Shown here in pieces: positions 6,858-19,042 of a stretch of DNA of 29,333 nt (within the stretch, counting starts at the first letter, position 1; each line of letters starts with the position of its first letter). The position numbers were made by a program, and so were the translations under genes. This DNA is from Gaiellaceae bacterium. Its GTDB lineage: Bacteria > Actinomycetota > Thermoleophilia > Gaiellales > Gaiellaceae. The stretch spans positions 1 to 29,333 of the forward strand of contig DASSCD010000166.1 in the NCBI GenBank assembly GCA_035698005.1. Direction: 5' to 3'. The notes under the pieces are model-generated. The model was not told the DNA's origin, did no database searches, and saw only the letters and a program-made list of their open reading frames with translations.

Positions 6858-6884
6858 CCGTCACCGCAGGTGACTGTCACCTGC
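6853..6884. repeat. Tandem REP-like palindromes at the convergent junction of rlmD and the membrane gene
   Basis: GGTGAC-C-GTCACC (6853-6865) is immediately followed by GCAGGTGAC-T-GTCACCTGC (6866-6884). Confidence 0.65.
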
Positions 6885-7736
6885 TTCGGTCCGCCCCCTC
6901 CACGCCGCGCGCACGTCGCGCCACAAGAGGTCCGCGTTCGGCGCGAGGAAGCCGAGGCAGACCGCCGGCAGCGCGGGTAGGCCGGGCGCGTCGTCCCAGG
7001 TCCACACGAGTGCGAGGGTGACGGAGAGAAGAGCGGTCATCGCGGCCCAGGTCCAGGGGACGCGCAGGCGGAAGCGGTCGGCGGCGGCGAGGAGGAGCGC
7101 GAAGAAGAGGATGTCCGGCGGGCCGATGTTCACGGTGGCCGTCTCGCCGGGGCTCGGGAACGCGACCGCGAGCCGTTCGAAGATGCCCGGCTGCTCCTCG
7201 ACGACGTAGCGGGTCGGCCCGGCGACGACGGACCAGATGTCGGCCCACGGTACGACGAGCGTGATCAGCGTCACCCACCACAACTCCTCGAAGAGCGTGA
7301 GGAACCAGAAGCCGACGAGCGCGTAGCAGGCGAGCTTGGCGACGTTCGCTGCCGACCCCATGTCGACCGCGGAGAGGACGAGCGCCGAGGCGCCGGCGGT
7401 CACGGCCGTGACGGCGAGGAGCCCACTCGAGCCACGGGCGAGGGGGAGCGCGAGCCAGATCGCGGCGGCGAAGAACGGGAAGACGAGCGCGCTGTGGAAG
7501 GCGACATCGACGCCCGAGGGGAGCTCCGGGAGCTTCGCCGCGACAGCGCCATAGGCGACGAGTGCCGCGAGCGAGGCGCCGAGGGCGGTGAGGCGACCGG
7601 GGCCTAGATGGTTGATCGGCAACCCCTCGCCGCGCGGCTGGTGGCCGAGACTCATCGCTGGCTGGCGCCGCCCTCCCTCGCCCGTATTCCCGATACGTGC
7701 TCGGTCGGGCGGCGTCCCCAGCTTGGTCTCGGCCAT
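6861..7736 (-). CDS. Polytopic membrane protein with presenilin/signal-peptide-peptidase-like motifs; first ~44 codons derive from the inserted 169-bp element
   Basis: About 8-9 hydrophobic segments with WADIWSV, NIGPPDILFF and a C-terminal LPALP. True start is uncertain. Confidence 0.7.
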   Translation of the reverse strand: MAETKLGTPPDRARIGNTGEGGRRQPAMSLGHQPRGEGLPINHLGPGRLTALGASLAALVAYGAVAAKLPELPSGVDVAFHSALVFPFFAAAIWLALPLARGSSGLLAVTAVTAGASALVLSAVDMGSAANVAKLACYALVGFWFLTLFEELWWVTLITLVVPWADIWSVVAGPTRYVVEEQPGIFERLAVAFPSPGETATVNIGPPDILFFALLLAAADRFRLRVPWTWAAMTALLSVTLALVWTWDDAPGLPALPAVCLGFLAPNADLLWRDVRAAWRGRTEAGDSHLR

Positions 7737-7772
7737 CCCCGCATCGACGGCGATTACCGATCAACCATCTAG
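7604..7772. mobile_element. 169-bp CTAG-bounded palindromic element (MITE-like), copy 1
   Basis: Perfect 16-bp terminal inverted repeat CTAGATGGTTGATCGG/CCGATCAACCATCTAG plus nested internal inverted repeats. Colinear with 23364-23532 (23 mismatches, no gaps, by manual alignment). Confidence 0.8.
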
Positions 7773-8350
7773 AACGGCGATTGCTCCGCCCACCAGGGGC
7801 CGAGCGCCTTGAGGGCGTTCCAGAAGCGGGTCTTCGACGGCGCGTCGTCGAGCGAGTCGTCGACGTCCGGTGTCACGAGCGCCTCGATCGTCGGCGTGAA
7901 GCGCTGCAGCGTTCCCTCCGCGCCCGCATCGACCGCGTCTGCGAGCGGGAACCGCAGCTCGTTCACGAATGCGACCGACCGCTCGCCCATGACGACGACG
8001 AGCTTCGGCTGGACGATGTGGAGCTCGCGGGTGAGCCAGCCGGCGGCGTCCGCGGGGTCCTCGGTGCCGAACTTCAGGCAGTTCGTCCCGTAGACGGCTA
8101 GCGGGTCGATCAGCAGCCGCTGGAGCGACTTCAGCACCGCTTGGCCGGCACGGCCGAAGAAGGCGACGCCTTCCTGGATCTCCGTCGGCTGCGGTGTGAA
8201 CTTCAGCAGGAAGACGTCCGCGAGCGGATGGCCGGAACCGAGCACGGGGACGCGCAGCTCGTCGCCGGCCTGTGCGAGCTCGTCGCCGAGCTCGTTGATC
8301 TCGGCGATGGCCCTCTTCAGATAGCGCTCGTAGATCTCGTCGGTTGGCAC
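7769..8350 (-). CDS. Uracil-DNA glycosylase-like fold protein with degenerate catalytic motifs
   Basis: GSGHPLADVFLL...GVAFFGRAGQAV...VYGTNCLK...ELHIVQPKLVVVMG resembles family-4 UDG. Start could also be the GTG at 8362. Confidence 0.75.
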   Translation of the reverse strand: MPTDEIYERYLKRAIAEINELGDELAQAGDELRVPVLGSGHPLADVFLLKFTPQPTEIQEGVAFFGRAGQAVLKSLQRLLIDPLAVYGTNCLKFGTEDPADAAGWLTRELHIVQPKLVVVMGERSVAFVNELRFPLADAVDAGAEGTLQRFTPTIEALVTPDVDDSLDDAPSKTRFWNALKALGPWWAEQSPF

Positions 8351-8385
8351 GGCGGCGGGCACGGAGTCGCTGGGACCTTTCTCGC

Positions 8386-10092
8386 TTAGCGGACCTTCTC
8401 CTTGACCTGGGCCACCCACTTCAGCGACTGCAGGTACGCGAGCGACTTCGGACGGCGGAGAACCTCGGCCGTGCGCAGCGAAAGGAGGAACTCCTCCGGC
8501 CCGTCGAAGCGCGGCATGCGCATCGCGCCCGTGCCGACACCCTGCAGCACGTGCGCGTCGGAACCGGCGCCCTGGAGGAGCCGGTACTTGCGCGCGAAGC
8601 GCAGCGCCTCGTCGTTGAAGGACTCGCGCAGGAGGCGGGCATTGAAGACCTCGAAGACGTCGATCTCCCCGAGGTGGCGGTGGAGCGTCGCCGGGTCCGG
8701 GATCGCATGCATGCGATCGAACGGGTGTGGAAGGTAGACGAGGCCACCCTGGTCGCGGATCGCGGCGACCGTGTCCGCGAAGGACAGGCCGCGCGGAATC
8801 TCCTCCTCGAGGAAGAGCCCGATCACCTCGCCCTGGCCGTCCGTCTTCACCTCTTCGCCCGGGATCACGATCAGGCGCCGGCCGGCCGCGTGCTCGACCG
8901 CCTCGAGCGCGCCGCCGAAGGCGTTGTGGTCGGTCACGGCGATGCCGCCGAGGCCGATCTCCTCCGCGTGGTCGACGAGGTCGGCGGCTGGAATCGAGCA
9001 GTCGTGCGACCAGTCGGTGTGCATGTGCATGTCGACGACGACCCAGTCGCGCTCTGCGAGCGGGTCGTCGACGCGCGCGCCCCGCGGCTGGCGCCGCTTG
9101 CGGGTGAGCCCGGCGTACACCTCGTCCAATTGGGCCGCGACGACGTCGAACGTCTGTGCCTCTGCACGCCTGCGTCCTTCTTCCGCGAGCCGCGAGCGCT
9201 GCACGTCGTCCTGCACGAGCGCGACGACGTCGTCCACAGTCGCGGTCGCAGCCGCGCACGCGGCGGCCTCGAGCGCGAGACGCTCCTCCCCGTCCACGGC
9301 CGGGACGAAGATCGACGCCTCGCTCAGGATCGCGGCGCGCTGCTCCGGCGTCCGGATCGACCGGACGTGCGTCCGTTGGCGGACCGCGCGCGGGATGGCG
9401 GGGCGGTAGGCGAGCGGCTTCGTGTGCAGGAGGTGGAGCTCCCAGCCCGCGAGATCGGGGAGCGAGGCGAGCAGTGCGCGCGTGGCCGCCCGGCCCGCCA
9501 TCTCCAGCTCGACGGCGATCATGTTCCGCTTCCGCCGCGGCTGATAGACGTCGGGGTCGATGCCGAGCGCCACGAGCCGGTAGTCGCCCGCGAGCCGCTC
9601 GCGTGCGGCCGCGATCGTCTGCTCCGAGGTCGCGAGCAGGGCGTCGACGCGGATGCGGAGCCGGTCCCGGCGCGACCTCCGCGCGGGGTAGCCGACTCGC
9701 TCGGGCGAGAAGAACGTAGCCGCGGTCAGCGCGTCCGCCGTCGTGAGCGCGAGGTAGGACAGGCTCGGAAGGCCGGGCTCGAACCCGTGGACGACGTCGA
9801 AGCGGCCCCGGCGGAGCGCGAGCGCGAGGTTCGCGCGAACACCGACCGGGACGCCGATGTGCGTCCGGCGCGAGATCGGGATCGACGGGCCCACCGCGAC
9901 GACCTCCCGGTCGAGCCCACGCTGGAGGGCACGACGACCGTCGAGGAGATCGCGGGCCCGGGACGACGGCGCGACGACGGTGACCTCGTGCCCGAGCACG
10001 CGGAGTGCGCGAGCCGCCCCGTCGACGTGCGCGTTCACCTCGTGCGGCTGCGACCACGCGAACGGCGTGACGAAGCAGATCCTGAGGCTCAC
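8386..10092 (-). CDS. Fusion of a PimA-like GT4 glycosyltransferase domain and a C-terminal PHP phosphoesterase
   Basis: N-terminal RICFVTPF...GHEVTVVAP...FDVVHGFEPGLPSLS. PHP metal motifs DMHMHT, TDHN, GEE, HPF and GSDAH. TAACCT -10 box lies 7 nt before the GTG. Confidence 0.88.
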   Translation of the reverse strand: MSLRICFVTPFAWSQPHEVNAHVDGAARALRVLGHEVTVVAPSSRARDLLDGRRALQRGLDREVVAVGPSIPISRRTHIGVPVGVRANLALALRRGRFDVVHGFEPGLPSLSYLALTTADALTAATFFSPERVGYPARRSRRDRLRIRVDALLATSEQTIAAARERLAGDYRLVALGIDPDVYQPRRKRNMIAVELEMAGRAATRALLASLPDLAGWELHLLHTKPLAYRPAIPRAVRQRTHVRSIRTPEQRAAILSEASIFVPAVDGEERLALEAAACAAATATVDDVVALVQDDVQRSRLAEEGRRRAEAQTFDVVAAQLDEVYAGLTRKRRQPRGARVDDPLAERDWVVVDMHMHTDWSHDCSIPAADLVDHAEEIGLGGIAVTDHNAFGGALEAVEHAAGRRLIVIPGEEVKTDGQGEVIGLFLEEEIPRGLSFADTVAAIRDQGGLVYLPHPFDRMHAIPDPATLHRHLGEIDVFEVFNARLLRESFNDEALRFARKYRLLQGAGSDAHVLQGVGTGAMRMPRFDGPEEFLLSLRTAEVLRRPKSLAYLQSLKWVAQVKEKVR

Positions 10093-10135
10093 GGTCGGGA
10101 GGTTAGCCTCCTCCTGGCTCGGCTACAGTCGACTC

Positions 10136-10339
10136 GTGGGCGGGGTGGAGATCAAGGTACGGAGGAACGGGCCGTACAAGGTCACCGGGCCCGCACGGGT
10201 GGTGGACGCCGCAGGCAACGAGATCACCTGCCCCGAAGGCGACGCGGTCGCGCTCTGCCGCTGCGGCAACTCGCGGACGAAGCCGTTCTGCGACGCGAGC
10301 CACAAGCGGGTCGGGTGGGTGGCCGACCCGCGTCGCTAG
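10136..10339 (+). CDS. CDGSH iron-sulfur domain protein (67 aa)
   Basis: NGPYKV...LCRCGNSRTKPFCDASH. TACAGT -10 box lies 6 nt before the GTG at 10136; alternative GTG at 10145. Confidence 0.9.
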   Translation: MGGVEIKVRRNGPYKVTGPARVVDAAGNEITCPEGDAVALCRCGNSRTKPFCDASHKRVGWVADPRR

Positions 10340-11040
10340 GTCGCCGCGCGGTTCGGGTTGCGGCGCAGCGCGAGGCGCTCGCCGGGAGCGAGGACGACCT
10401 CGAGCCCCTCGTTCGAGCGCGTGAGGACGAGCTGGACGTCGTCGAGCGCGGCGAGCACGCGCGCCTCCGGGTCGCTCGACTGTGCGCTACGGAATCGTTC
10501 GAGAACGGGCACGAGAAGGTAGGTCGCCCCGGTGAGGATCCAGATCACGGCGAGGGCCTTGCCCATGCTCTCCGAGGCGTTGCGGTCCCAGATCGCATAG
10601 CTGGAGAGCACAGCGGCCAGGGCTGCGAGGATGCCTGCGATCGTCGCGAGCGGCGTCAGCGACGCGGACTCAGCGAGCAGGCGCGCGGTCACTGCGATCA
10701 AAGTCGCGATCAGGAGGACCACGCCGGTCCACCCGTACCGCCAGGCATCGCCGCCACCGTCGAACACGAAGTCCCAGATCGCGTACGCGAGCAGTCCGAA
10801 GCCGAGCGGTGCGACGACGACGGCGACACGTCCGAGCAAGGCGTCGTCGCGGTCGACGAGCACGAGCCCCGAGACCAGCGTCCCTCCGGCCAGGAGGAGC
10901 GCTGCCAGCGTCGCGAGAATCCGGCCGTCCGTGTCCGAAAAGTCTCCGCGAAGCACCGCGGCGAGAGCGATCAGCGCGGCGACGACGAGCGCCGCCGCCG
11001 CGCCGATCCAGAACGTGCGCGCGAGGCGCCGGCGGGTCAC
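10336..11040 (-). CDS. Hypothetical multi-pass membrane protein (234 aa)
   Basis: [20 protein letters not shown]..., about six TM segments. GTGA overlap with the ino1 stop codon. Confidence 0.75.
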
Positions 11041-12530
11041 GCCTTCGCTGCCGCCTTCGTCTTCGCCTTGCCGACCGCGTTCTTCACGATGAAGCGCTCG
11101 ATGTCCTCGCGCGCCTCGTCGTCGCGGATCTGCTTCGGCGGCGACTTCATCAGGTATGCGCTCGGCGCCTCGAGCGCGCCCGAGATGCCGTTGTTCAAGG
11201 CCAGCTTCGCCAACCGGACGGCGTCGATGACGATCCCGGCCGAGTTCGGCGAGTCCCAGACCTCGAGCTTCAGCTCGACGTTGAGCGGCACGTCGCCGAA
11301 GGAGGAGCCCTCCATGCGGATGTACGCCCACTTGCGGTCGGTCAGCCACGGCACGTAGTCGGACGGGCCGACGTGCACGTTCCCGTCGCCGATGTCGTAG
11401 TCGAGCATCGACGTGACCGCGTTCGTCTTCGAGATCTTCTTCGATTCGAGGCGCTCGCGCTCGAGCATGTTGAGGAAGTCGGAGTTGCCGCCGACATTGA
11501 GCTGCATCGTCTTGTCGAGGTGGACGCCGCGGTCGCCGAACAGTGTCGTCAGCATGCGGTGCGTGATCGTCGCCCCGACCTGCGACTTGATGTCGTCGCC
11601 GATGATCGGGCAGCCGGCCTCCTCGAAGCGCTTGTGCCAGTACGGCTCGCGAGCGATGAAGACGGGCATGCAGTTCACCATCGCGACGCCGGCCTCGAGG
11701 ATCTGCTCCGCGTACCACTTCGTCGCAGCCTCCGAGCCGACCGGCAGGTAGTTGACGACGACGTCGGTGCCGGTCTCCTTCAGGATCCGGACGACGTCGT
11801 CGGTCGGGCCGGCCGCCTTCTCCACGACCTGCGAGAGGTACTTGCCGATGCCGTCGTGCGTCATGCCGCGCGAGACCGTGACGCCCGTCTTCGGGACGTC
11901 AGAGAACCTGATCGTGTCGTTCGGCTTCGCCCAGATCGCGTCCGCGAGGTCGACTCCGACCTTGCCCTTGACGACGTCGAACGCCGCCGTGAACTCGATG
12001 TCCGAGATGTGGTACCCGCCGAGGTCGACGTGCATGAGGCCCGGGACCGTGTCCTCGGGCTTCGCGTCCTTGTAGTACTCGACTCCCTGCAGGAGCGAGT
12101 TGGCGCAGTTGCCCACGCCGATGATGGCGACGCGCACCTTGTCCTTCGCGCGTGCGCCGTTCTTCGAGCCGTTTTGAGAAGCCATGAGCTCCCTTCCCTT
12201 GCGGTTGCTCCGCGCGGGGACGCCGAGACCGTCGGCGAGCGCGGCGAGGATGACGTCGTTCGCGTTGGAGTCGCGCCGCGACGCCTCCGCGTGGATCTCG
12301 TCCTTCAGCTCCTGCGGGACACGGAGGAATAGGACGGGGCTGCCGCCCGCGAGCACCTTGCGCCTGCGGCCGGTGGGCGTGTAGTCGAGGCCGAACTCGT
12401 CGGCGAGGATGCCGGCGGCGACGTCGTTGACGTTGGAGCCGCGGCGGGCCGTCTCGCGGACGAGCGCTCCCTTCAAGGGAGCGGGCATCCGCACCAGGAT
12501 ACCCGCCCTCTGCGTTTTGCTAGCAGTCAA
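11037..12530 (-). CDS. ino1: myo-Inositol-1-phosphate synthase with an in-frame N-terminal tandem ribbon-helix-helix region
   Basis: [54 protein letters not shown] and [11 protein letters not shown] match actinobacterial Ino1. No stop codon between the TTG at 12530 and the Ino1-like ATG at 12185. Confidence 0.93.
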
Positions 12531-12568
12531 AGTGCTAGCAGATTACCGTACGCCACCTCCGGGCGCAA
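12518..12568 (-). promoter_or_regulatory. Promoter and candidate operator of the RHH-ino1 gene
   Basis: -35 TTGCGC (12568-12563), 17 nt, -10 TAATCT (12545-12540). TGCTAGCA-N7-TGCTAGCA lies at 12518-12540. Confidence 0.65.
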
Positions 12569-12603
12569 GGACGGGCATCGCACGCATGCGGCGCTGTCTC
12601 GGC

Positions 12604-12880
12604 CTAGCGCGCGCGCAGCGCGCGGATCAGGCCCCACTTGCCCATCTCCGAGCGGCCGCGGATGTTGCGCTCCTGCGCGAGCTCGTAGAGCTGCTGGCGG
12701 ATCCGGTCCTCGAGCGAGCTGCCGGCGCGCGGCCACCGCGCCTCCTCGCCCCGCGAAGCCTGCTTGCCGAATCGCGGCGAGTGGCCTCGGGCAGATGCGC
12801 GATCGTCCTCTTGCTCTCGACGCCGACTGCGCCCGGCGGATGTTGCGCTTCGCGGCTTCCGTCTGCTCGCGTGTGGCCAT
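12604..12880 (-). pseudogene. Frameshifted small basic protein with a Rho-N-like C-terminal motif
   Basis: Three frames join into MATREQTEAAKRNIRRAQSAS / KRTIAHLPEATRRD / GKQASR...SLEDRIRQQLYELAQERNIRGRSEMGKWGLIRALRAR*. The 277 nt are 2 nt short of a 93-codon ORF. Confidence 0.75.
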
Positions 12881-12915
12881 GATGCCCTCTTCTCGTTCGT
12901 CCTTCACACCGGGCT

Positions 12916-12931
12916 GCCCGCTCTCGCGGGC
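12916..12931 (-). terminator. Short GNRA-loop hairpin after pgsA
   Basis: GCCCGC-GAGA-GCGGGC on the minus strand, 8 nt after the pgsA stop. No U-tract. Confidence 0.35.
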
Positions 12932-12939
12932 GCTCCACG

Positions 12940-13608
12940 TCAGCGCGCTTCGGCGAGCTCGCGGAGCTGGCGGCGGACGAAGAGCATCCGCTGGGTCACC
13001 GTCACCCAGACGATCGCCGCGAGCGCGTAGATCGGCCATTGCAGCCAGCCCCAGGGGGCGAGGCCGAGGCCGACGGAGATGAGGACCACCCGCTCCACGC
13101 GCGACCCGAAGCCGACGTCGCCGCGGAGGCCGAGCGACTCCGCCTTCGCCCGCGTGTAGGAGACGAGGAACGAGCCGATGACGGCGGCGAAGGTCGCGAC
13201 GAGGGCGATCTCGTTCCCGTCCCGCATGAAGGCGAGCCCGATCGCGGCGAGCATCGCGGCCTCGCCGAGGCGGTCGAACGTCGAGTCGAGGAACGCCCCG
13301 AAGACCGTGCCCTTGCTCGCCGCCCGCGCGAGGGCGCCGTCCAGGATGTCCGCGATCGACCCGACGACGAAGAGTGCGCCGCCGACCCAGAAGAAGAGCT
13401 TCTCGTTGCGGTCCTCGAACCCCACGAGCACGGCGCCCGTGAGACAGAGCGAGACGCCGGCGAGCGTGAGCATGTCGGGCGTCAGCTTCGTCTTCGCGAC
13501 GCCGCGCATCGAGCGCGCGAGGATCTCGCGCGCAGCCTGCGTGTACTCCTGCTTGACCTTGTCGAGTTGGCTGACCCGGGCCGGCTCGCGCGCGGGGTCT
13601 TCGCTCAT
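12940..13608 (-). CDS. pgsA: CDP-alcohol phosphatidyltransferase, phosphatidylinositol-phosphate synthase (PgsA1/PipS-like)
   Basis: LTPDMLT, family motif DILDGALAR...FGAFLDSTFD, and SYTRAKAESLG...RVER, which resemble mycobacterial PgsA1. ATGA overlap with the upstream gene. Confidence 0.9.
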   Translation of the reverse strand: MSEDPAREPARVSQLDKVKQEYTQAAREILARSMRGVAKTKLTPDMLTLAGVSLCLTGAVLVGFEDRNEKLFFWVGGALFVVGSIADILDGALARAASKGTVFGAFLDSTFDRLGEAAMLAAIGLAFMRDGNEIALVATFAAVIGSFLVSYTRAKAESLGLRGDVGFGSRVERVVLISVGLGLAPWGWLQWPIYALAAIVWVTVTQRMLFVRRQLRELAEAR

Positions 13609-14345
13609 GCGCGCCGGAGGCGCAGCGTGCTCACCCGGCGCAGGACGTACCCGGTCGCCAGCGCGATCGCGAAGCCGGCGACGACGTCGAGCCAGTAGTG
13701 GTTCCCGGTGGAGATCACCGCGAAGGACACCCAGATCGGCCAGGCGAACCACAGCGCCTTCGCGAAGCGTGAGCGGACGACGCCGAACATCACGATCCCG
13801 ACGATCAGCGCGTCCATCGCGTGCAGGCTCGGCATCGCCGCGTACGGGTTCGAGGCGAAGGCGATGAGGCCGCTCGAGTGGTTGACCGAGGAGTATTGGC
13901 CGAGCGTGTCGACGAAGCCCCACTCGGGGAACATCCGCGGGGGTGCCGTCGGCATGAAGACGTAGCCCACGAGCCCGACGAGGTTCGCGAAGATGAGCCA
14001 GTTCCGAAAGCCTGCGAAGCGCTCGTGGTGACGGAAGTACACCCAGAGCAGCGTGATCCCGACGACCGCGAACTGGGACAGCCAGTAGGTGTACGAGGTG
14101 AGGGTCACGAGCACCGACGACGTGTCCACGACGCGCTGCACGGCCGGCTCGAAGAGCGCGCCGACCTGGCTCTCGGTGCGGAGCACCCACTCGCCGTTGT
14201 GGAACGCGCTCGCGACGTCGCGGTCGGCCGCCCCGCGGGCGACCTGGTACACGACGTAGAAGCCCATCCAGATGACGAACTGGAAGGCGAGGTGCGCCCA
14301 GCCGCGAGGCAGGCGCCGCGGACGGTCGGCGGCGTGGCTCGTCAC
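13605..14345 (-). CDS. PAP2-superfamily membrane protein, Aur1/Ipt1 (inositol-phosphoceramide-synthase-like, PAP2_3) type
   Basis: PTAPPRMF, YAAMPSLH and GNHYWLDVVAG motifs with about six TM segments. GGAGG lies 4 nt before the GTG at 14345. Confidence 0.88.
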   Translation of the reverse strand: MTSHAADRPRRLPRGWAHLAFQFVIWMGFYVVYQVARGAADRDVASAFHNGEWVLRTESQVGALFEPAVQRVVDTSSVLVTLTSYTYWLSQFAVVGITLLWVYFRHHERFAGFRNWLIFANLVGLVGYVFMPTAPPRMFPEWGFVDTLGQYSSVNHSSGLIAFASNPYAAMPSLHAMDALIVGIVMFGVVRSRFAKALWFAWPIWVSFAVISTGNHYWLDVVAGFAIALATGYVLRRVSTLRLRRA

Positions 14346-14358
14346 GACACCTCCGATT

Positions 14359-15387
14359 CTAACGGGACGCGCCGCGGTCGCTCTCAGGTCTCGGCGCATA
14401 CGAGGTCAGCGCCCGCATGTAGTTGCCACGCTCGAACGCGGCCGGGTCCGGGCACGACGCCTGGCTGAGGCTGCCCTGCAGCTGCCGCAGGGATTCGTAC
14501 TCGCGCTCAACCATCCAGGCTTCGATACCCACGAGGAGCTCGCGCACGACACCGGGCCCGCGCCGAAGGAGCGCCGAGGCGACGAGCACGGCGTTCGCAC
14601 CCGCGAGGAGGAGCTTCAAGGCGCCCTGCCAGTCGTGCACGCCGGTCGTGCCGGCGAGATCGACCTCCACGCGACCGCGGAGGATGGCGATCCAGCGCAG
14701 GGGAAGCCTGAGCTCGACCGGGCTCGAGAGCGGGAGCCAGGGCGCGACCTCGAGCGTCTCGAGGTCGATGTCCGGCTGCAGGAAGCGGTTGAAGAGCACG
14801 AGGCCGTCGGCTCCCGCGTCCGAGAGCCGTTGCGCCATGTGCGCGAAGGCCGAGTAGAAGGGGCCGACCTTGACCGCGAGCGGGAGCGACACCGCGTCGC
14901 GGACCTGTGCGACCAGGGCGAGCGTCCGCTCCTCGACGTCCGCCGCCGAGTGCCCGGGGTCGGTCTCGACCGCGTACACGTTCAGCTCGAGCGCGTCCGC
15001 ACCGGCTTCCTCGCAGAGGCGCGCGTAGCGCACCCAGCCGCCTGCCGAGACGCCGTTCAGGCTCGCGATCACCGGGACCTCGAGCGCTGCCTTCGCCAGC
15101 GCCAGGTGCTCGAGGTAGCGCTCCGGTCCGGTGTTGTAGTCCTCGAGCTCCGGGAACCAGGTGAGCGCCTCGCCGACGCTGTGCGTCTGGTGCTCGAGCA
15201 GGTCGTGGAGGTCGATCTGCTCGTGCTCGATCTGCTCCTCGAAGAGCGAGGGCAGGACGACGGCGGCGATGCCGGCCTCCTCTAGGGCGCGGAGCGAGTC
15301 GAGGGTGCCCGTGAGCGGCGAGGCGGAGGCGACGATCGGACCGCGGAGCGGGAGGCCGAGGTAGGTGGTCGAGAGGTCGACGGTCAC
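14359..15387 (-). CDS. Dihydroorotate dehydrogenase-like flavoprotein of the type linked to PFOR
   Basis: YLGLPLRGPIVASASP, SLFEEQI, ADALELN, GLVLFNRF, ASALLRRG and FERGNYM. GTGA overlap with the PFOR stop. Confidence 0.88.
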   Translation of the reverse strand: MTVDLSTTYLGLPLRGPIVASASPLTGTLDSLRALEEAGIAAVVLPSLFEEQIEHEQIDLHDLLEHQTHSVGEALTWFPELEDYNTGPERYLEHLALAKAALEVPVIASLNGVSAGGWVRYARLCEEAGADALELNVYAVETDPGHSAADVEERTLALVAQVRDAVSLPLAVKVGPFYSAFAHMAQRLSDAGADGLVLFNRFLQPDIDLETLEVAPWLPLSSPVELRLPLRWIAILRGRVEVDLAGTTGVHDWQGALKLLLAGANAVLVASALLRRGPGVVRELLVGIEAWMVEREYESLRQLQGSLSQASCPDPAAFERGNYMRALTSYAPRPESDRGASR

Positions 15388-18300
15388 GTCGTCTCGTCCT
15401 CGGCCGCCTCGGGGTCCGCCGGCTCGTGCTCGATCTCCGCCAGCTGCTCGTACACGTGCCAGCGCTCGTCGACGTCGTGCTGGGCGAGCGCGCCGAGCTC
15501 GGCGGCCTCGTCTGGGCGCGCGCGCCGGAGCATCGCGAAGCGCGCCTCCCGCGACATGAACTCGGAGACCGGGAGCTTCGGCGGGCGCGAGTCGAGCTTG
15601 AAGGGGTGCTCGCCGGCTTGCGCGTGGCGGGGGTCGTAGCGGTAGAGCGGCCAGTAGCCGGTGTCCACCGCGAGCTTGTGCTGCTCCATCGCCTTCTTCA
15701 TCTCGATCCCGTGCGCGATGCAGTGGCTATAGGCGATGACGAGCGACGGCCCGTCGTACGCATCCGCCTCCGCGAGGGCCTTCACGGTCTGCGGGTTGTC
15801 CGCGCCCATCGCGATCTGCGCGACGTACACGTCCCCGTACGCGGAGGCGATCATTCCCAGGTCCTTCTTGCGCGTGCGCTTGCCGCCGGCGGCGAACTTC
15901 GCCACCGCGGCGCGCGGCGTCGCCTTCGAGGCCTGGCCGCCGGTGTTCGAGTACACCTCGGTGTCGAGCACGAGGACGTTCACGTTCCGGCCGGAGGCGA
16001 GCACGTGATCGAGCCCGCCGAAGCCGATGTCGTACGCCCAGCCGTCGCCGCCCACGATCCAGACCGTCCTGCGGACGAGCGCGCGCGCGACGGCCAGGAG
16101 CCGGAGCGCCTCGGGAGTCGCCAGCTCGTAACAGCGCGACTCGAGCTCGTCGACGCGGACGCGCTGCGCGGCGATGCCGGCCTCCGTCGTCTGGTCCGCA
16201 TCGAGGAGAGCCGGCGCGAGGTCGGGGGCGACCTCGGCGACGAGCGCCCTGGCCGAGGCCTCCTGCTGGTCGAGCGCAAGCCGCATGCCGAGGCCGAACT
16301 CCGCGTTGTCCTCGAAGAGGGAGTTCGACCACGCCGGCCCGCGCCCGTCGGCGTTCCGTGCCCAGGGCGTCGTCGGCAGGTTGCCTCCGTAGATCGAGGA
16401 GCACCCGGTCGCGTTCGCGACGAGCATCCGGTCACCGAACAGCTGCGTGAGGAGCTTCAGGTACGGCGTCTCGCCGCAGCCCTCGCAGGCACCCGAGTAC
16501 TCGAACAGCGGCTGGAGCATCTGGGAGCCCTTCACCGTCGCCGGCGCGACGAGCGAGCGGTCGATCTCCGGGATCCCGAGGAAGAACGCATTGCGCTCGC
16601 GCTCGACCTCGAGATGGTCGTCCTTCGGCTCGAGGTTGATCGACTTGTGCCGGACCTCCTCCTTCGAGTGGGCAGGGCAGGTCTCGACGCAGATGCCGCA
16701 GCCCGTGCAGTCCTCCGGCGCCACCTGGATCGTCATCAGCATCCCGGGCAGGTCGCGGGCCTTCCACTCCTTCGAGGGGAACCCGTCCGGAGCGCCCTCG
16801 ACCGCCTCGGGCGGGAAGACCTTCATCCGGATCGCGGCGTGCGGGCAGACGAGCGTGCACTTCGCGCAGTCGATGCAGATAGAGGGGTCCCAGATCGGGA
16901 TCTCGGGCGCGATCGAGCGCTTCTCGTACTGCGCGGTGCCGGTCGGGAACGTCCCGTCGACCGGCAGCGCGGAGACCGGCAGGCCGTCGCCGCGGCCCGC
17001 GATGATCGCGGCCGTGACGTCGCGGACGAACGCGGGCGCCTCTGCTGCCACGGGCTCGGGCCGGCTCCGCGTCGCCGAGACCACCGTGGGGATCTCGACC
17101 TCGGCAAGACCCTCGAGAGCGCGGTCGACGGCCGCGAAGTTCCGCTCGAGCACCGCCTCGCCGCGCTTGCCATAGGTCGCGCGGATCGCGCCCTTGATGG
17201 ACGCGATCGCGTCCTCTCTGGGCATGACCTCGGCGAGCGCGAAGAAGCACGTTTGCAGCACGGTGTTAACGCGCTTGCCGAGGCCGGCGTCGCGCGCGAC
17301 CCGAGAGGCGTCGACCACGAAGAAGCGAAGCTGCTTCTCGACGATCTGCTCCTGCACCTCGAGGGGCAGGTGCTCCCACACCTCGTCGGGCCCATAGGGC
17401 GCGTTGAGAAGGAATGTCGCCCTCTCGGCGGCGAGCTCCAAAACGTCGATCCGGTCGAGGAAGCCGAACTGGTGGCAGGCGACGAAGTCGGCGCGCTGTA
17501 CGAGGTACGTCGAACGGATCGGCTCCGGCCCGAAGCGGAGGTGCGAGACGGTGGTCGAGCCGGCCTTCTTCGAGTCGAGCACGAAGTACGCCTGCGCATG
17601 GAGCCCGGTGGCCTCGGCGATGATCCTGATCGAGTTCCGGTTCGCCCCCACGGTGCCGTCGGCACCGAGGCCGTAGAAGACGGCCTGACGCACCTCCTCG
17701 GGCTCCGTCCTGAACATCGGGTCGACCTCGAGCGAGAGCCCGCCGACGTCGTCGGTGATCCCGACTGTGAACCGCCTCTTCGGATCCTCCTTCGCGAGCT
17801 CGGCGAGCGCGGCGGCGGCCATCGCAGGCGTGAGCTCCTTCGAGGAGAGGCCGTAGCGGCCGCCGATCACGCGTGGCGGCTCCGCGGTCCGCTCGGCGAG
17901 CGCCGTGACGACGTCCTGGAAGAGGGGCTCGGCGAGAGCGGCCGGCTCCTTCGTGCGGTCGAGCACGGCGATCGCGGACACCGAGGCCGGCAGCGTGGCG
18001 ACGAAGGCCGCGGCATCGAACGGGCGATACAGCCGGACCTTGACGACTCCAACGCGCTCGCCGTCGTCGCACAGCCGCTCGACGGCCTCCTCGGCCGCCC
18101 CCGCGCCCGACCCCATCAGCACGAGCACGCGCTCCGCCTCGGGGTGCCCGACGTAGTCGAACAGCCGGTAGGAGCGACCGGTCCGTCTCCCGAGCCGCGC
18201 CATCTCCTCCTGGACGATCCCGGGAACGGCGTCATAGAAGGGGTTGACCGCCTCCCGCGCCTGGAAGAAGACGTCGGGGTTCTGTGCGCTTCCGCGGAGC

Positions 18301-18938
18301 ACCGGGTCGTCGGGCGAGAGCGCGCGGGCGCGGTGTGCGCGCACGAGCTCCTCGTCGAGGAGCGCTCTGACGTCGTCCTCGGACAGGCGCTCGACCGTGC
18401 TCAGCTCATGTGAGGTGCGGAAGCCGTCGAAGAAGTGGAGGAAGGGAATGCGCGCCCGCAGCGTGGCGGCATGGGCGACGAGGGCGAGGTCGTGCGCCTC
18501 CTGCACGGACGAGGAGCACAGCAGCGCGAACCCGGTCGTGCGCGCGGCCATCACGTCGGAGTGGTCGCCGAAGATCGAGAGAGCGTGGGTCGCGACGGTG
18601 CGCGCCGCGACGTGGATGACCGCGGGCGTGAGCTCGCCCGCGATCTTGAACATGTTCGGGAGCATGAGCAGGAGGCCCTGCGAGCTCGTGAAGGTCGTCG
18701 CCAGCGAGCCGGCCTGCAGCGCGCCGTGCACCGCTCCCGCGGCGCCGCCCTCGCTCTGCATCTCGACGACCTGTGGCACCGCACCCCATGCGTTGGGGAC
18801 ACCCTGTGACGACCATGCGTCGGCGAGCTCCCCCATCGGAGTCGCCGGGGTGATCGGGTAGATCGCGATCACCTCGCTCGCGCGGTACGCGACCCAGGCA
18901 GCGCCCTCGTTGCCGTCGATGATCTCGCGACCTCCCAT
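15384..18938 (-). CDS. nifJ: Pyruvate:ferredoxin (flavodoxin) oxidoreductase, NifJ-type homodimer
   Basis: IAIYPITP, EMQSEGGAAG, two ferredoxin CxxCxxCxxxCP motifs, ACEGCGETPY and the TPP motif GGDGWAYDIG. Alternative start at 18974. Confidence 0.95.
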   Translation of the reverse strand: MGGREIIDGNEGAAWVAYRASEVIAIYPITPATPMGELADAWSSQGVPNAWGAVPQVVEMQSEGGAAGAVHGALQAGSLATTFTSSQGLLLMLPNMFKIAGELTPAVIHVAARTVATHALSIFGDHSDVMAARTTGFALLCSSSVQEAHDLALVAHAATLRARIPFLHFFDGFRTSHELSTVERLSEDDVRALLDEELVRAHRARALSPDDPVLRGSAQNPDVFFQAREAVNPFYDAVPGIVQEEMARLGRRTGRSYRLFDYVGHPEAERVLVLMGSGAGAAEEAVERLCDDGERVGVVKVRLYRPFDAAAFVATLPASVSAIAVLDRTKEPAALAEPLFQDVVTALAERTAEPPRVIGGRYGLSSKELTPAMAAAALAELAKEDPKRRFTVGITDDVGGLSLEVDPMFRTEPEEVRQAVFYGLGADGTVGANRNSIRIIAEATGLHAQAYFVLDSKKAGSTTVSHLRFGPEPIRSTYLVQRADFVACHQFGFLDRIDVLELAAERATFLLNAPYGPDEVWEHLPLEVQEQIVEKQLRFFVVDASRVARDAGLGKRVNTVLQTCFFALAEVMPREDAIASIKGAIRATYGKRGEAVLERNFAAVDRALEGLAEVEIPTVVSATRSRPEPVAAEAPAFVRDVTAAIIAGRGDGLPVSALPVDGTFPTGTAQYEKRSIAPEIPIWDPSICIDCAKCTLVCPHAAIRMKVFPPEAVEGAPDGFPSKEWKARDLPGMLMTIQVAPEDCTGCGICVETCPAHSKEEVRHKSINLEPKDDHLEVERERNAFFLGIPEIDRSLVAPATVKGSQMLQPLFEYSGACEGCGETPYLKLLTQLFGDRMLVANATGCSSIYGGNLPTTPWARNADGRGPAWSNSLFEDNAEFGLGMRLALDQQEASARALVAEVAPDLAPALLDADQTTEAGIAAQRVRVDELESRCYELATPEALRLLAVARALVRRTVWIVGGDGWAYDIGFGGLDHVLASGRNVNVLVLDTEVYSNTGGQASKATPRAAVAKFAAGGKRTRKKDLGMIASAYGDVYVAQIAMGADNPQTVKALAEADAYDGPSLVIAYSHCIAHGIEMKKAMEQHKLAVDTGYWPLYRYDPRHAQAGEHPFKLDSRPPKLPVSEFMSREARFAMLRRARPDEAAELGALAQHDVDERWHVYEQLAEIEHEPADPEAAEDETT

Positions 18939-19042
18939 CGCATACAGGGTGTTCCGCGGGCCCGCCGAGGGCATCAGGGTCGACGCTGACGGCCGTTCGG
19001 GCTTCCCCGCACGCGACCCGGGCGCCGTGCGACGATGGCCCG

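Follow-up and report, generated by a model that had tools for sequence, protein, structure and literature searches.

The stretch of DNA analysed here, contig C166 (DASSCD010000166.1) of a 74%-complete Gaiellaceae metagenome-assembled genome (MAG; G000), is 29,333 nt long and is referred to below as the window. On its minus strand it carries an inositol-lipid gene cluster that is real and conserved. The core of this cluster, formed by the myo-inositol-3-phosphate synthase Ino1 and a phosphatidylinositol-phosphate (PIP) synthase, represents ordinary actinobacterial phosphatidylinositol (PI) synthesis. The unusual parts are PAP2_3, an enzyme that resembles the yeast inositol-phosphorylceramide (IPC) synthase Aur1 in an organism without ceramide, and a protein in which an apparently decayed PimA-like domain is fused to a PHP phosphoesterase (pseudo-PimA::PHP). 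Our leading reading, which we put forward tentatively, is that PAP2_3 would be an Aur1-type, PI-dependent phosphoinositol transferase that serves an acceptor other than ceramide. The locus as a whole may be the Thermoleophilia version of the bacterial two-step PI pathway with an extra downstream step, a view whose probability we place a little short of even.

The genes were identified from a listing of open reading frames (ORFs) and from Pfam and NCBIfam scans of the window proteins, and all those named in the original prediction were present, on the strands and essentially at the positions it had assigned to them. The PAP2_3 gene (13605-14345, minus strand; PF14378) encodes a membrane enzyme of 246 amino acids with six transmembrane (TM) helices, similar to Aur1 and to the Bacteroides protein BT_1522; a start at the upstream ATG at 14399 would lengthen it to 264 amino acids, and public gene calls favour the 246-amino-acid form. 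It is followed by the PIP synthase gene (12940-13608, minus strand; PF01066), which encodes a CDP-alcohol phosphatidyltransferase of 222 amino acids, by ino1 (11037-12530, minus strand; TIGR03450), whose product has an N-terminal extension resembling a ribbon-helix-helix (RHH) domain, and by the gene for the pseudo-PimA::PHP fusion (8386-10092, minus strand; 568 amino acids; Pfam GT4 N-domain, PHP and PHP_C). The PAP2_3 stop codon and the ATG start of the PIP synthase gene share the letters ATGA, and the ino1 stop codon shares GTGA with the GTG start of a further membrane protein gene; both overlaps had been claimed and could be read directly in the sequence. A promoter and terminator scan of positions 7600-14600 found none.

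For the PIP synthase the top NCBIfam models were those for AIP/PIP synthases (131 and 127 bits, the PIPSynth model scoring 127 bits under its cut-off of 170), and the top match in the PDB was Mycobacterium tuberculosis PgsA1 (6h53, E 5e-24), with the PIP synthase structures 6wm5 and 5d91 also matched. Its translation contains the CDP-alcohol phosphotransferase motif DGxxAR...G...D...D. Ino1 matched TIGR03450 with an E value of 1e-164 across residues 132-481.

Conservation of the cluster was assessed by tblastn with the window proteins against 20 loci around PAP2_3 homologues in relatives, and against further sets of 80 public loci and of 14 loci around the PIP synthase gene in other Thermoleophilia families. 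The arrangement is far beyond chance, since the genes for PAP2_3, PIP synthase and Ino1 are adjacent and in the same order in about 55 Gaiellales species genomes. In these Gaiellales loci the GT4::PHP gene, a gene similar to uracil-DNA glycosylase (UDG) genes and a membrane protein gene come next, often after a variable insert; the PHP protein of some Gaiellales families is not fused to a GT4 domain. Outside the Gaiellales, the genes for PIP synthase, Ino1, PHP (with or without GT4) and UDG were adjacent in 13 of the 14 Thermoleophilia genomes, and PAP2_3 lay directly upstream of the PIP synthase gene in 4 of them. The existence of a conserved inositol-lipid gene cluster was thus borne out by this neighbourhood comparison across the class. 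The PAP2_3 stop and the PIP synthase start overlapped by 4 nt in 21 of 67 loci and by 20 nt in 7 more, and the spacing in the remaining loci was mostly 50 nt or less. In a maximum-likelihood tree, all 57 PAP2_3 sequences linked to a PIP synthase gene grouped with 10 unlinked paralogues in a single Thermoleophilia clade (SH-aLRT 98), and the homologues from Streptomyces, Chloroflexota and Thermomicrobia, which are unlinked to PIP synthase, fell outside it.

The resemblance of PAP2_3 to Aur1 was evident at several levels. PAP2_3 matched PF14378 over profile positions 2-187 of 190 (E 9e-41; 140.2 bits against a cut-off of 27), and when a profile of 16 homologues was run against the PDB, the sole significant matches were structures of yeast Aur1 (9vj3 and 9ivc, E of about 0.002). 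In this alignment the PSLH motif of PAP2_3 matches PSLH of Aur1 and its NHYWLD matches HHYFVD, such that the predicted catalytic triad H175/H216/D220 aligns to Aur1 H255, H294 and D298. Mutation of any one of these three Aur1 residues abolishes IPC synthesis (PMC13133130). Across an alignment of 85 PAP2_3 sequences H175 and H216 were invariant, D220 was conserved in at least 90%, and the motifs PTAPPR, NPYAAMPSLH and TGNH were invariant or nearly so. The AlphaFold (AF2) model of PAP2_3 (pLDDT 92.6) scored highest against Aur1 (VIA-align Z of 18.7 and 18.5), followed by LpxE (16.2), Bacillus subtilis PgpB (14.4) and SMSr (13.6), and among the Swiss-Prot models of the AlphaFold database its top four matches were BT_1522 (24% identity) and three fungal Aur1 proteins. 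The description of this gene as Aur1/IPC-synthase-like was therefore upheld by Pfam, by the PDB profile search and by the predicted fold, with the catalytic His of PSLH and the His/Asp of NHYWLD retained.

Compared with the Aur1 structures (9vj3, 9vj4, 9ivc), PAP2_3 has the same PAP2/LPT core fold, the same His-His-Asp triad in PSLH and HYxxD, and, by prediction, an active site facing away from the cytoplasm; both proteins are without the C1 Lys and the C3 Arg of the PAP2 phosphomonoesterases. PAP2_3 differs from Aur1 in lacking its two extra N-terminal helices, in having no known Kei1 partner, in carrying Arg for the Trp of PAAPPW, and in having no ceramide substrate available. Its six TM helices, with both termini inside, were placed by hydropathy, by the helices of the model and by the positive-inside rule (15 Lys/Arg in the predicted inner loops and termini versus 5 in the outer loops), and this topology brings all three motifs to the predicted outer side of the membrane.

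The second unusual component, the pseudo-PimA::PHP fusion, consists of a PimA-like GT4 domain (residues ~1-340) and a PHP phosphoesterase (residues ~350-568). The best PDB match of the N-terminal domain was PimA (2gej and 4n9w, E 2e-8), over PimA residues 1-119 only. In PimA itself, PI and the membrane are bound through this N-terminal domain. Across 28 fusion orthologues, P-H-E/D stands where PimA has its Gly-Gly donor loop, the position of PimA H118 is an invariant Phe, and the first Glu of the EX7E motif is not conserved; EX7E has decayed in other orders too. The same 28 orthologues show an invariant set of PHP metal ligands (H356, H358, D388, H389, E413, H456, D512 and H514), in the pattern HxH, DH, E, H, DxH. 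Judging from these alignments, the PimA-like domain is a decayed pseudo-glycosyltransferase that has lost its sugar-donor motifs. The naming of this gene as a PimA-like-PHP fusion was thus accurate as to its two domains, the PimA-like one being decayed.

With its donor motifs gone but an invariant PHP metal site, the fusion is a better candidate for the PIP phosphatase than PAP2_3, and a decayed PimA joined to an intact phosphatase would fit this role because the PimA N-terminal domain binds PI and the membrane. Moreover, the fusion has no TM segment, which should place its action on the cytoplasmic side, the site of PIP synthesis. It is linked to the PIP synthase and Ino1 genes across the whole class, more widely than PAP2_3 is. 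The PHP domain has orthologues (identity of 48% or higher, most of them in open frames of at least 640 amino acids) only within the class, where they occurred in 13 of 14 other Thermoleophilia genomes, each time next to ino1; the remote stand-alone PHP homologues outside the class do not lie beside a PIP synthase gene.

Taken together, these enzymes suggest the following route. By homology, Ino1 provides inositol-3-phosphate, and the PIP synthase, as a homologue of PgsA1, couples this compound with CDP-diacylglycerol at the cytoplasmic face, which yields PIP. The cytoplasmic pseudo-PimA::PHP fusion would then most likely dephosphorylate PIP to PI, its decayed PimA domain serving as a binding module for the membrane and for the head group of PI. 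PAP2_3, translated together with the PIP synthase and with its His-His-Asp site predicted on the outer face, would most likely act like Aur1 and BT_1522. In such a reaction its C3 histidine would serve as the nucleophile on the phosphodiester of flipped PI, diacylglycerol would be released, and the phosphoinositol would be passed to an acceptor hydroxyl. Because a ceramide pathway was not found, this acceptor would have to be some other lipid or glycan of the envelope. The inositol-phosphate-decorated lipid or glycan of the original prediction is a putative product of this route.

Among described systems, the Bacteroides BT_1521-1526 cluster comes closest, and not the mycobacterial pgsA1-patA-pimA operon. 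In B. thetaiotaomicron the Aur1-like BT_1522, a PI-dihydroceramide synthase, adjoins the PIP synthase BT_1523 (Heaver et al. 2022, PMC9246714). Deletion of BT_1522 abolished PI-dihydroceramide and left PI unchanged, the PIP phosphatase is a separate, PgpA-like enzyme (BT_1525), and an LPG-synthase-like gene (BT_1521) flanks BT_1522 (PMC9246714). Both systems thus combine a myo-inositol-3-phosphate synthase and a PIP synthase with an adjacent Aur1-like protein and, within the same locus, a separate PIP phosphatase, which in the window is a candidate. They also share a link to LPG-synthase-TM-like proteins, which is by adjacency in Bacteroides and by fusion to PAP2_3 paralogues in Gaiellales. 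The differences are that the Bacteroides phosphatase is PgpA-like whereas the Gaiellaceae candidate is a PHP domain fused to a pseudo-PimA, that Bacteroides makes the dihydroceramide acceptor whereas no serine palmitoyltransferase was found in Gaiellaceae, and that PAP2_3 is only about 24% identical to BT_1522, far under the equivalog cut-off. A PgpA-type PIP phosphatase as in Bacteroides was rejected, as no member of PgpA family PF04608 was found in the genus; here and below, searches of the genus covered four near-complete genomes.

With the mycobacterial operon (Rv2612c-Rv2610c) the window shares a PgsA1-type PIP synthase, a nearby PimA-related gene and the synthesis of PI via PIP. In mycobacteria, however, patA is part of the operon and ino1 lies elsewhere, whereas here ino1 is inside the locus, the PimA homologue is PHP-fused and without donor-binding motifs, and a PAP2_3 gene precedes the synthase gene. 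The PatA family PF03279 was not found in the window, in this MAG or in the four genomes of the genus, and the Corynebacterium control was positive; nor was an acyltransferase of any kind found in the window. The original prediction had noted that no PatA-like gene was visible, which held, and had described the Aur1-like gene as standing in place of the usual acyltransferase, which holds in a positional sense only, the closer precedent being the Aur1-like gene beside the PIP synthase gene in Bacteroides.

Several observations weigh against PAP2_3 as a phosphoinositol transferase. A ceramide acceptor route was not found in the genus. Against the NCBIfam equivalog for PI-dihydroceramide synthase (NF052609) PAP2_3 scored 33.7 bits, the cut-off being 480. 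In fold, PAP2_3 is almost as close to LpxE and PgpB, which are true phosphatases, as it is to Aur1. The Arg of PTAPPR, which is invariant or nearly so, occupies the site of the C1 Arg of PAP2 phosphatases, where Aur1 has Trp, and such a C1-like Arg would fit the binding of a phosphomonoester. Finally, in genome G171 a PHP orthologue was not found and five PAP2_3 paralogues were present, as would be expected if PHP and PAP2_3 were alternative phosphatases.

The last of these points lead to the main rival explanation, in which PAP2_3 would itself, alone or redundantly with a second enzyme, act as the PIP phosphatase and remove the 3-phosphate of PIP in the manner of PgpB. We consider this unlikely, although a number of findings speak for it. 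The coupling of the PAP2_3 and PIP synthase genes is tight, PgpA was not found in the genus, and no assignment of an actinobacterial PIP phosphatase was found in the literature searched. Furthermore, the PgpB enzymes of Escherichia coli (4px7, 5jwy) and B. subtilis (5jki) are PAP2 enzymes that dephosphorylate the analogous phosphatidylglycerol phosphate. They are structural neighbours of PAP2_3, with the same superfamily fold and an outward-facing site (predicted here), and their substrate, as PIP would be here, is a lipid whose phosphorylated head group comes from a CDP-alcohol phosphatidyltransferase. PgpB, however, has the full motif set KX6RP / PSGH / SRX5HX3D of the PAP2 phosphomonoesterases, which is incomplete in PAP2_3: the Arg at the C1 position, the C2 His and the C3 His-Asp are kept, but there is no Lys seven residues before R137 and no Ser-Arg before H216. 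Phosphodiester transferases are what PAP2_3 resembles most closely, both in profile searches and in fold, and PIP arises on the inner face of the membrane whereas the PAP2_3 active site is predicted to face outward.

The distribution of the family also argues against such a phosphatase. Among 201 sampled Actinomycetota (tallies that take in genomes G041, G088, G128 and G160, which are flagged as unpublished and on which no single claim is based), PAP2_3 homologues with E of at most 1e-12 were found in 18, as against 148 with a PIP synthase. In genome G070, which is 100% complete, PIP synthase and Ino1 are present and a PF14378 member was not found; there the start of a GT4 gene lies at the end of the contig with the PIP synthase and Ino1 genes, and the PHP orthologue is on another contig. 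PI synthesis would thus seem to need no PAP2_3, because G070 keeps the PIP synthase and Ino1 pair without a PF14378 member. Two other genomes, G100 and G115, gave weak PF14378 matches only. The homologous neighbour BT_1522 is likewise dispensable for PI synthesis in Bacteroides, and the locus itself holds a better-linked phosphatase candidate in the PHP fusion. The alternative of PAP2 as the PIP phosphatase, which had been raised from the outset, therefore retains the gene coupling and the C1-like Arg in its favour, and is weakened by a PHP fusion that is linked to PIP synthase and Ino1 class-wide.

It is also conceivable, but improbable, that PAP2_3 acts on a lipid unrelated to inositol, for instance in the transfer of another phospholipid head group or on polyprenyl or diacylglycerol pyrophosphate, and that its position reflects inherited gene order. 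Numerous members of the family are unlinked paralogues or belong to outgroups (in Streptomyces, in Chloroflexota and on contig C203 of the same MAG), the UDG-like and presenilin-like genes are syntenic too without an obvious role in the pathway, and public annotation calls PAP2_3 just a 'phosphatase PAP2 family protein'. Nevertheless, the linkage of PAP2_3 to the PIP synthase is ancestral for the whole Thermoleophilia clade and persists while the flanking genes vary, and the overlaps of stop and start codons are frequent. An independent pairing of this kind exists in Bacteroides, where the function is inositol-lipid transfer. In addition, a PIP synthase was present in every one of the 17 sampled actinobacterial genomes with a PAP2_3 homologue. 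This co-occurrence points weakly to a PI-dependent role for PAP2_3, since the 17 genomes span only eight families.

That PAP2_3 is a true IPC (or dihydroceramide) synthase as in fungi and Bacteroides is the least probable explanation, since it shares the Pfam family, the triad and the closest folds with such enzymes but falls far below the PI-dihydroceramide synthase cut-off in a genus where no serine palmitoyltransferase was found. The one conserved alpha-oxoamine synthase of the genus is Kbl (464 bits against a cut-off of 460), and three serine palmitoyltransferase models gave 224-325 bits against cut-offs of 500-670. The ceramide route was rejected, as Kbl and a weak BioF-like gene in one genome were all that was found. 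The literature searched yielded nothing usable on PAP2_3 or PF14378, on a mycobacterial PIP phosphatase or on Gaiella polar lipids, and inositol lipids are not taken up in the Gaiella occulta genome paper.

Returning to PAP2_3 as a phosphoinositol transferase, some of its relatives have neighbours or fusion partners that may bear on the step it would catalyse. Gaiellales paralogues with about 40% identity to PAP2_3 are fused to an LPG_synthase_TM domain, similar to the MprF flippase (L081:7944-9683, L083:7833-9716 and L020:8643-10526), and a further one (L078:7146-8747) carries an isochorismatase domain. Near-complete genomes of the genus (G006, G011, G004 and G012) each have an expanded set of 8-9 LPG_synthase_TM genes, two of which, in G011, are found no more than 5 kb from a weak PAP2_3-like match. 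In other Thermoleophilia families (f8 and f11), an alpha/beta hydrolase gene and a gene for a membrane protein of 530-640 amino acids without a Pfam family lie just upstream of PAP2_3 and the PIP synthase gene (L126:5164-7901, L128:10492-13139 and L130:10343-11938), a block absent from the locus in the window. As a lead only, language-model look-alikes of this membrane protein belong to the GT-C families PTPS_related, YfhO and PMT_2 (scores of 0.90-0.93); in the present genus a homologue occurs in only one of five genomes, at a different place in that genome. These LPG_synthase_TM, GT-C-like and hydrolase associations are consistent with an outer-leaflet inositol-lipid or glycolipid pathway, and are no proof of one for this genome. 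More broadly, and with somewhat less assurance than for PAP2_3 itself, Thermoleophilia, lacking ceramide, might carry out an outer-face, Aur1-type transfer of phosphoinositol to an acceptor that is not a sphingolipid, for example a glycolipid, a lipoglycan or some other component of the envelope, and in certain orders the upstream GT-C-like glycosyltransferase and alpha/beta hydrolase would take part.

A second, divergent PAP2_3 gene occurs in the same MAG on contig C203 (L114; 1205-2125, plus strand), where it is convergent with, and abuts, a canonical PAP2 gene (PF01569; 2122-2745, minus strand). The genes that flank unlinked PAP2_3 homologues in Streptomyces and Chloroflexota, which encode an AAA protein and an aminotransferase, were uninformative.

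The N-terminal extension of Ino1 comprises about 120 amino acids with two RHH-like repeats and is confined to part of the Gaiellaceae, being present or absent among relatives. The proposed RHH-Ino1 protein was therefore secure in its Ino1 part, and the RHH part gave a weak match to Pfam RHH_1 (E 0.17). At positions 12518-12540 the palindrome TGCTAGCA occurs twice, 15 nt apart, straddling the TTG start of the extended ino1, and this pair could form an operator for the RHH part of the fusion. The PIP synthase gene and ino1 are separated by a small ORF (12604-12879, minus strand) that begins MATREQTEAAKRNIRRAQ and ends LYELAQERNIRGRSEMGKWGLIRALRAR; read-through seems to need two frame changes, and the C-terminal piece has a weak Rho_N match (E 0.014). 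It looks like an inserted, possibly broken gene, or an assembly error, because many relatives have only about 90 nt at this position.

The segment between ino1 and the GT4::PHP gene holds inserts that vary among relatives. The ORF that is GTGA-coupled to ino1 (10336-11040, minus strand) encodes a protein with six TM helices for which no Pfam or NCBIfam family was found; a match to GPI2 (E 0.039) was not significant, and its Atlas look-alikes are hypothetical proteins only. The suggestion that it might be an accessory protein or transporter was dropped, as among about 100 loci homologues occurred only in those of two close relatives (L013 and L035). Of the inserted genes, that for a 64-amino-acid CDGSH iron-sulfur protein (10145-10339, plus strand and hence divergent from the cluster; PF09360, E 6e-20) alone recurs, with homologous ORFs in five close relatives (L035, L036, L037, L039 and L040), and it is an inserted passenger.

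Downstream of the fusion gene lies a UDG family-4-like gene (7769-8344, minus strand; PF03167, 31 bits), which holds this position in nearly all Thermoleophilia loci examined. The pairing with the PHP gene has no obvious functional reason, and no role of the gene in the lipid pathway is apparent. The next gene (6861-7736, minus strand), assigned from synteny and an AF2 model (pLDDT 87), encodes a polytopic membrane protein similar to presenilin and signal peptide peptidase (SPP) and is a syntenic neighbour in Gaiellales. Its top Foldseek matches were presenilin-1 and SPPL2a (22-24% identity), and D97, G136, D139 and the LPALP motif were invariant in an alignment of residues 70-291, the first ~70 residues not being conserved in relatives. 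This protein is probably unrelated to the lipid pathway. Upstream of PAP2_3, the region 14359-18974 (minus strand) holds a dihydroorotate-dehydrogenase-like gene (PRK07565, 450 bits) and a 1196-amino-acid ORF, a putative pyruvate:ferredoxin oxidoreductase identified from its translation alone; this pair lies upstream of the cluster in just one other locus (L040).

Thermoleophilia, the Gaiellaceae included, rank among the most abundant actinobacteria of soil, and their envelope chemistry is almost uncharted because so few of them are in culture. The locus described here offers two concrete candidates. For the step from PIP to PI, an enzyme has been put forward in Bacteroides alone, a PgpA homologue, with no actinobacterial assignment in the literature searched, and the pseudo-PimA::PHP fusion, with orthologues confined to the class, is a candidate for this step in actinobacteria. 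If PAP2_3 does transfer phosphoinositol, the reaction of Aur1 and BT_1522 would extend to a new class of acceptor, and these abundant soil bacteria would make an undescribed class of inositol-phosphate-decorated envelope molecules.

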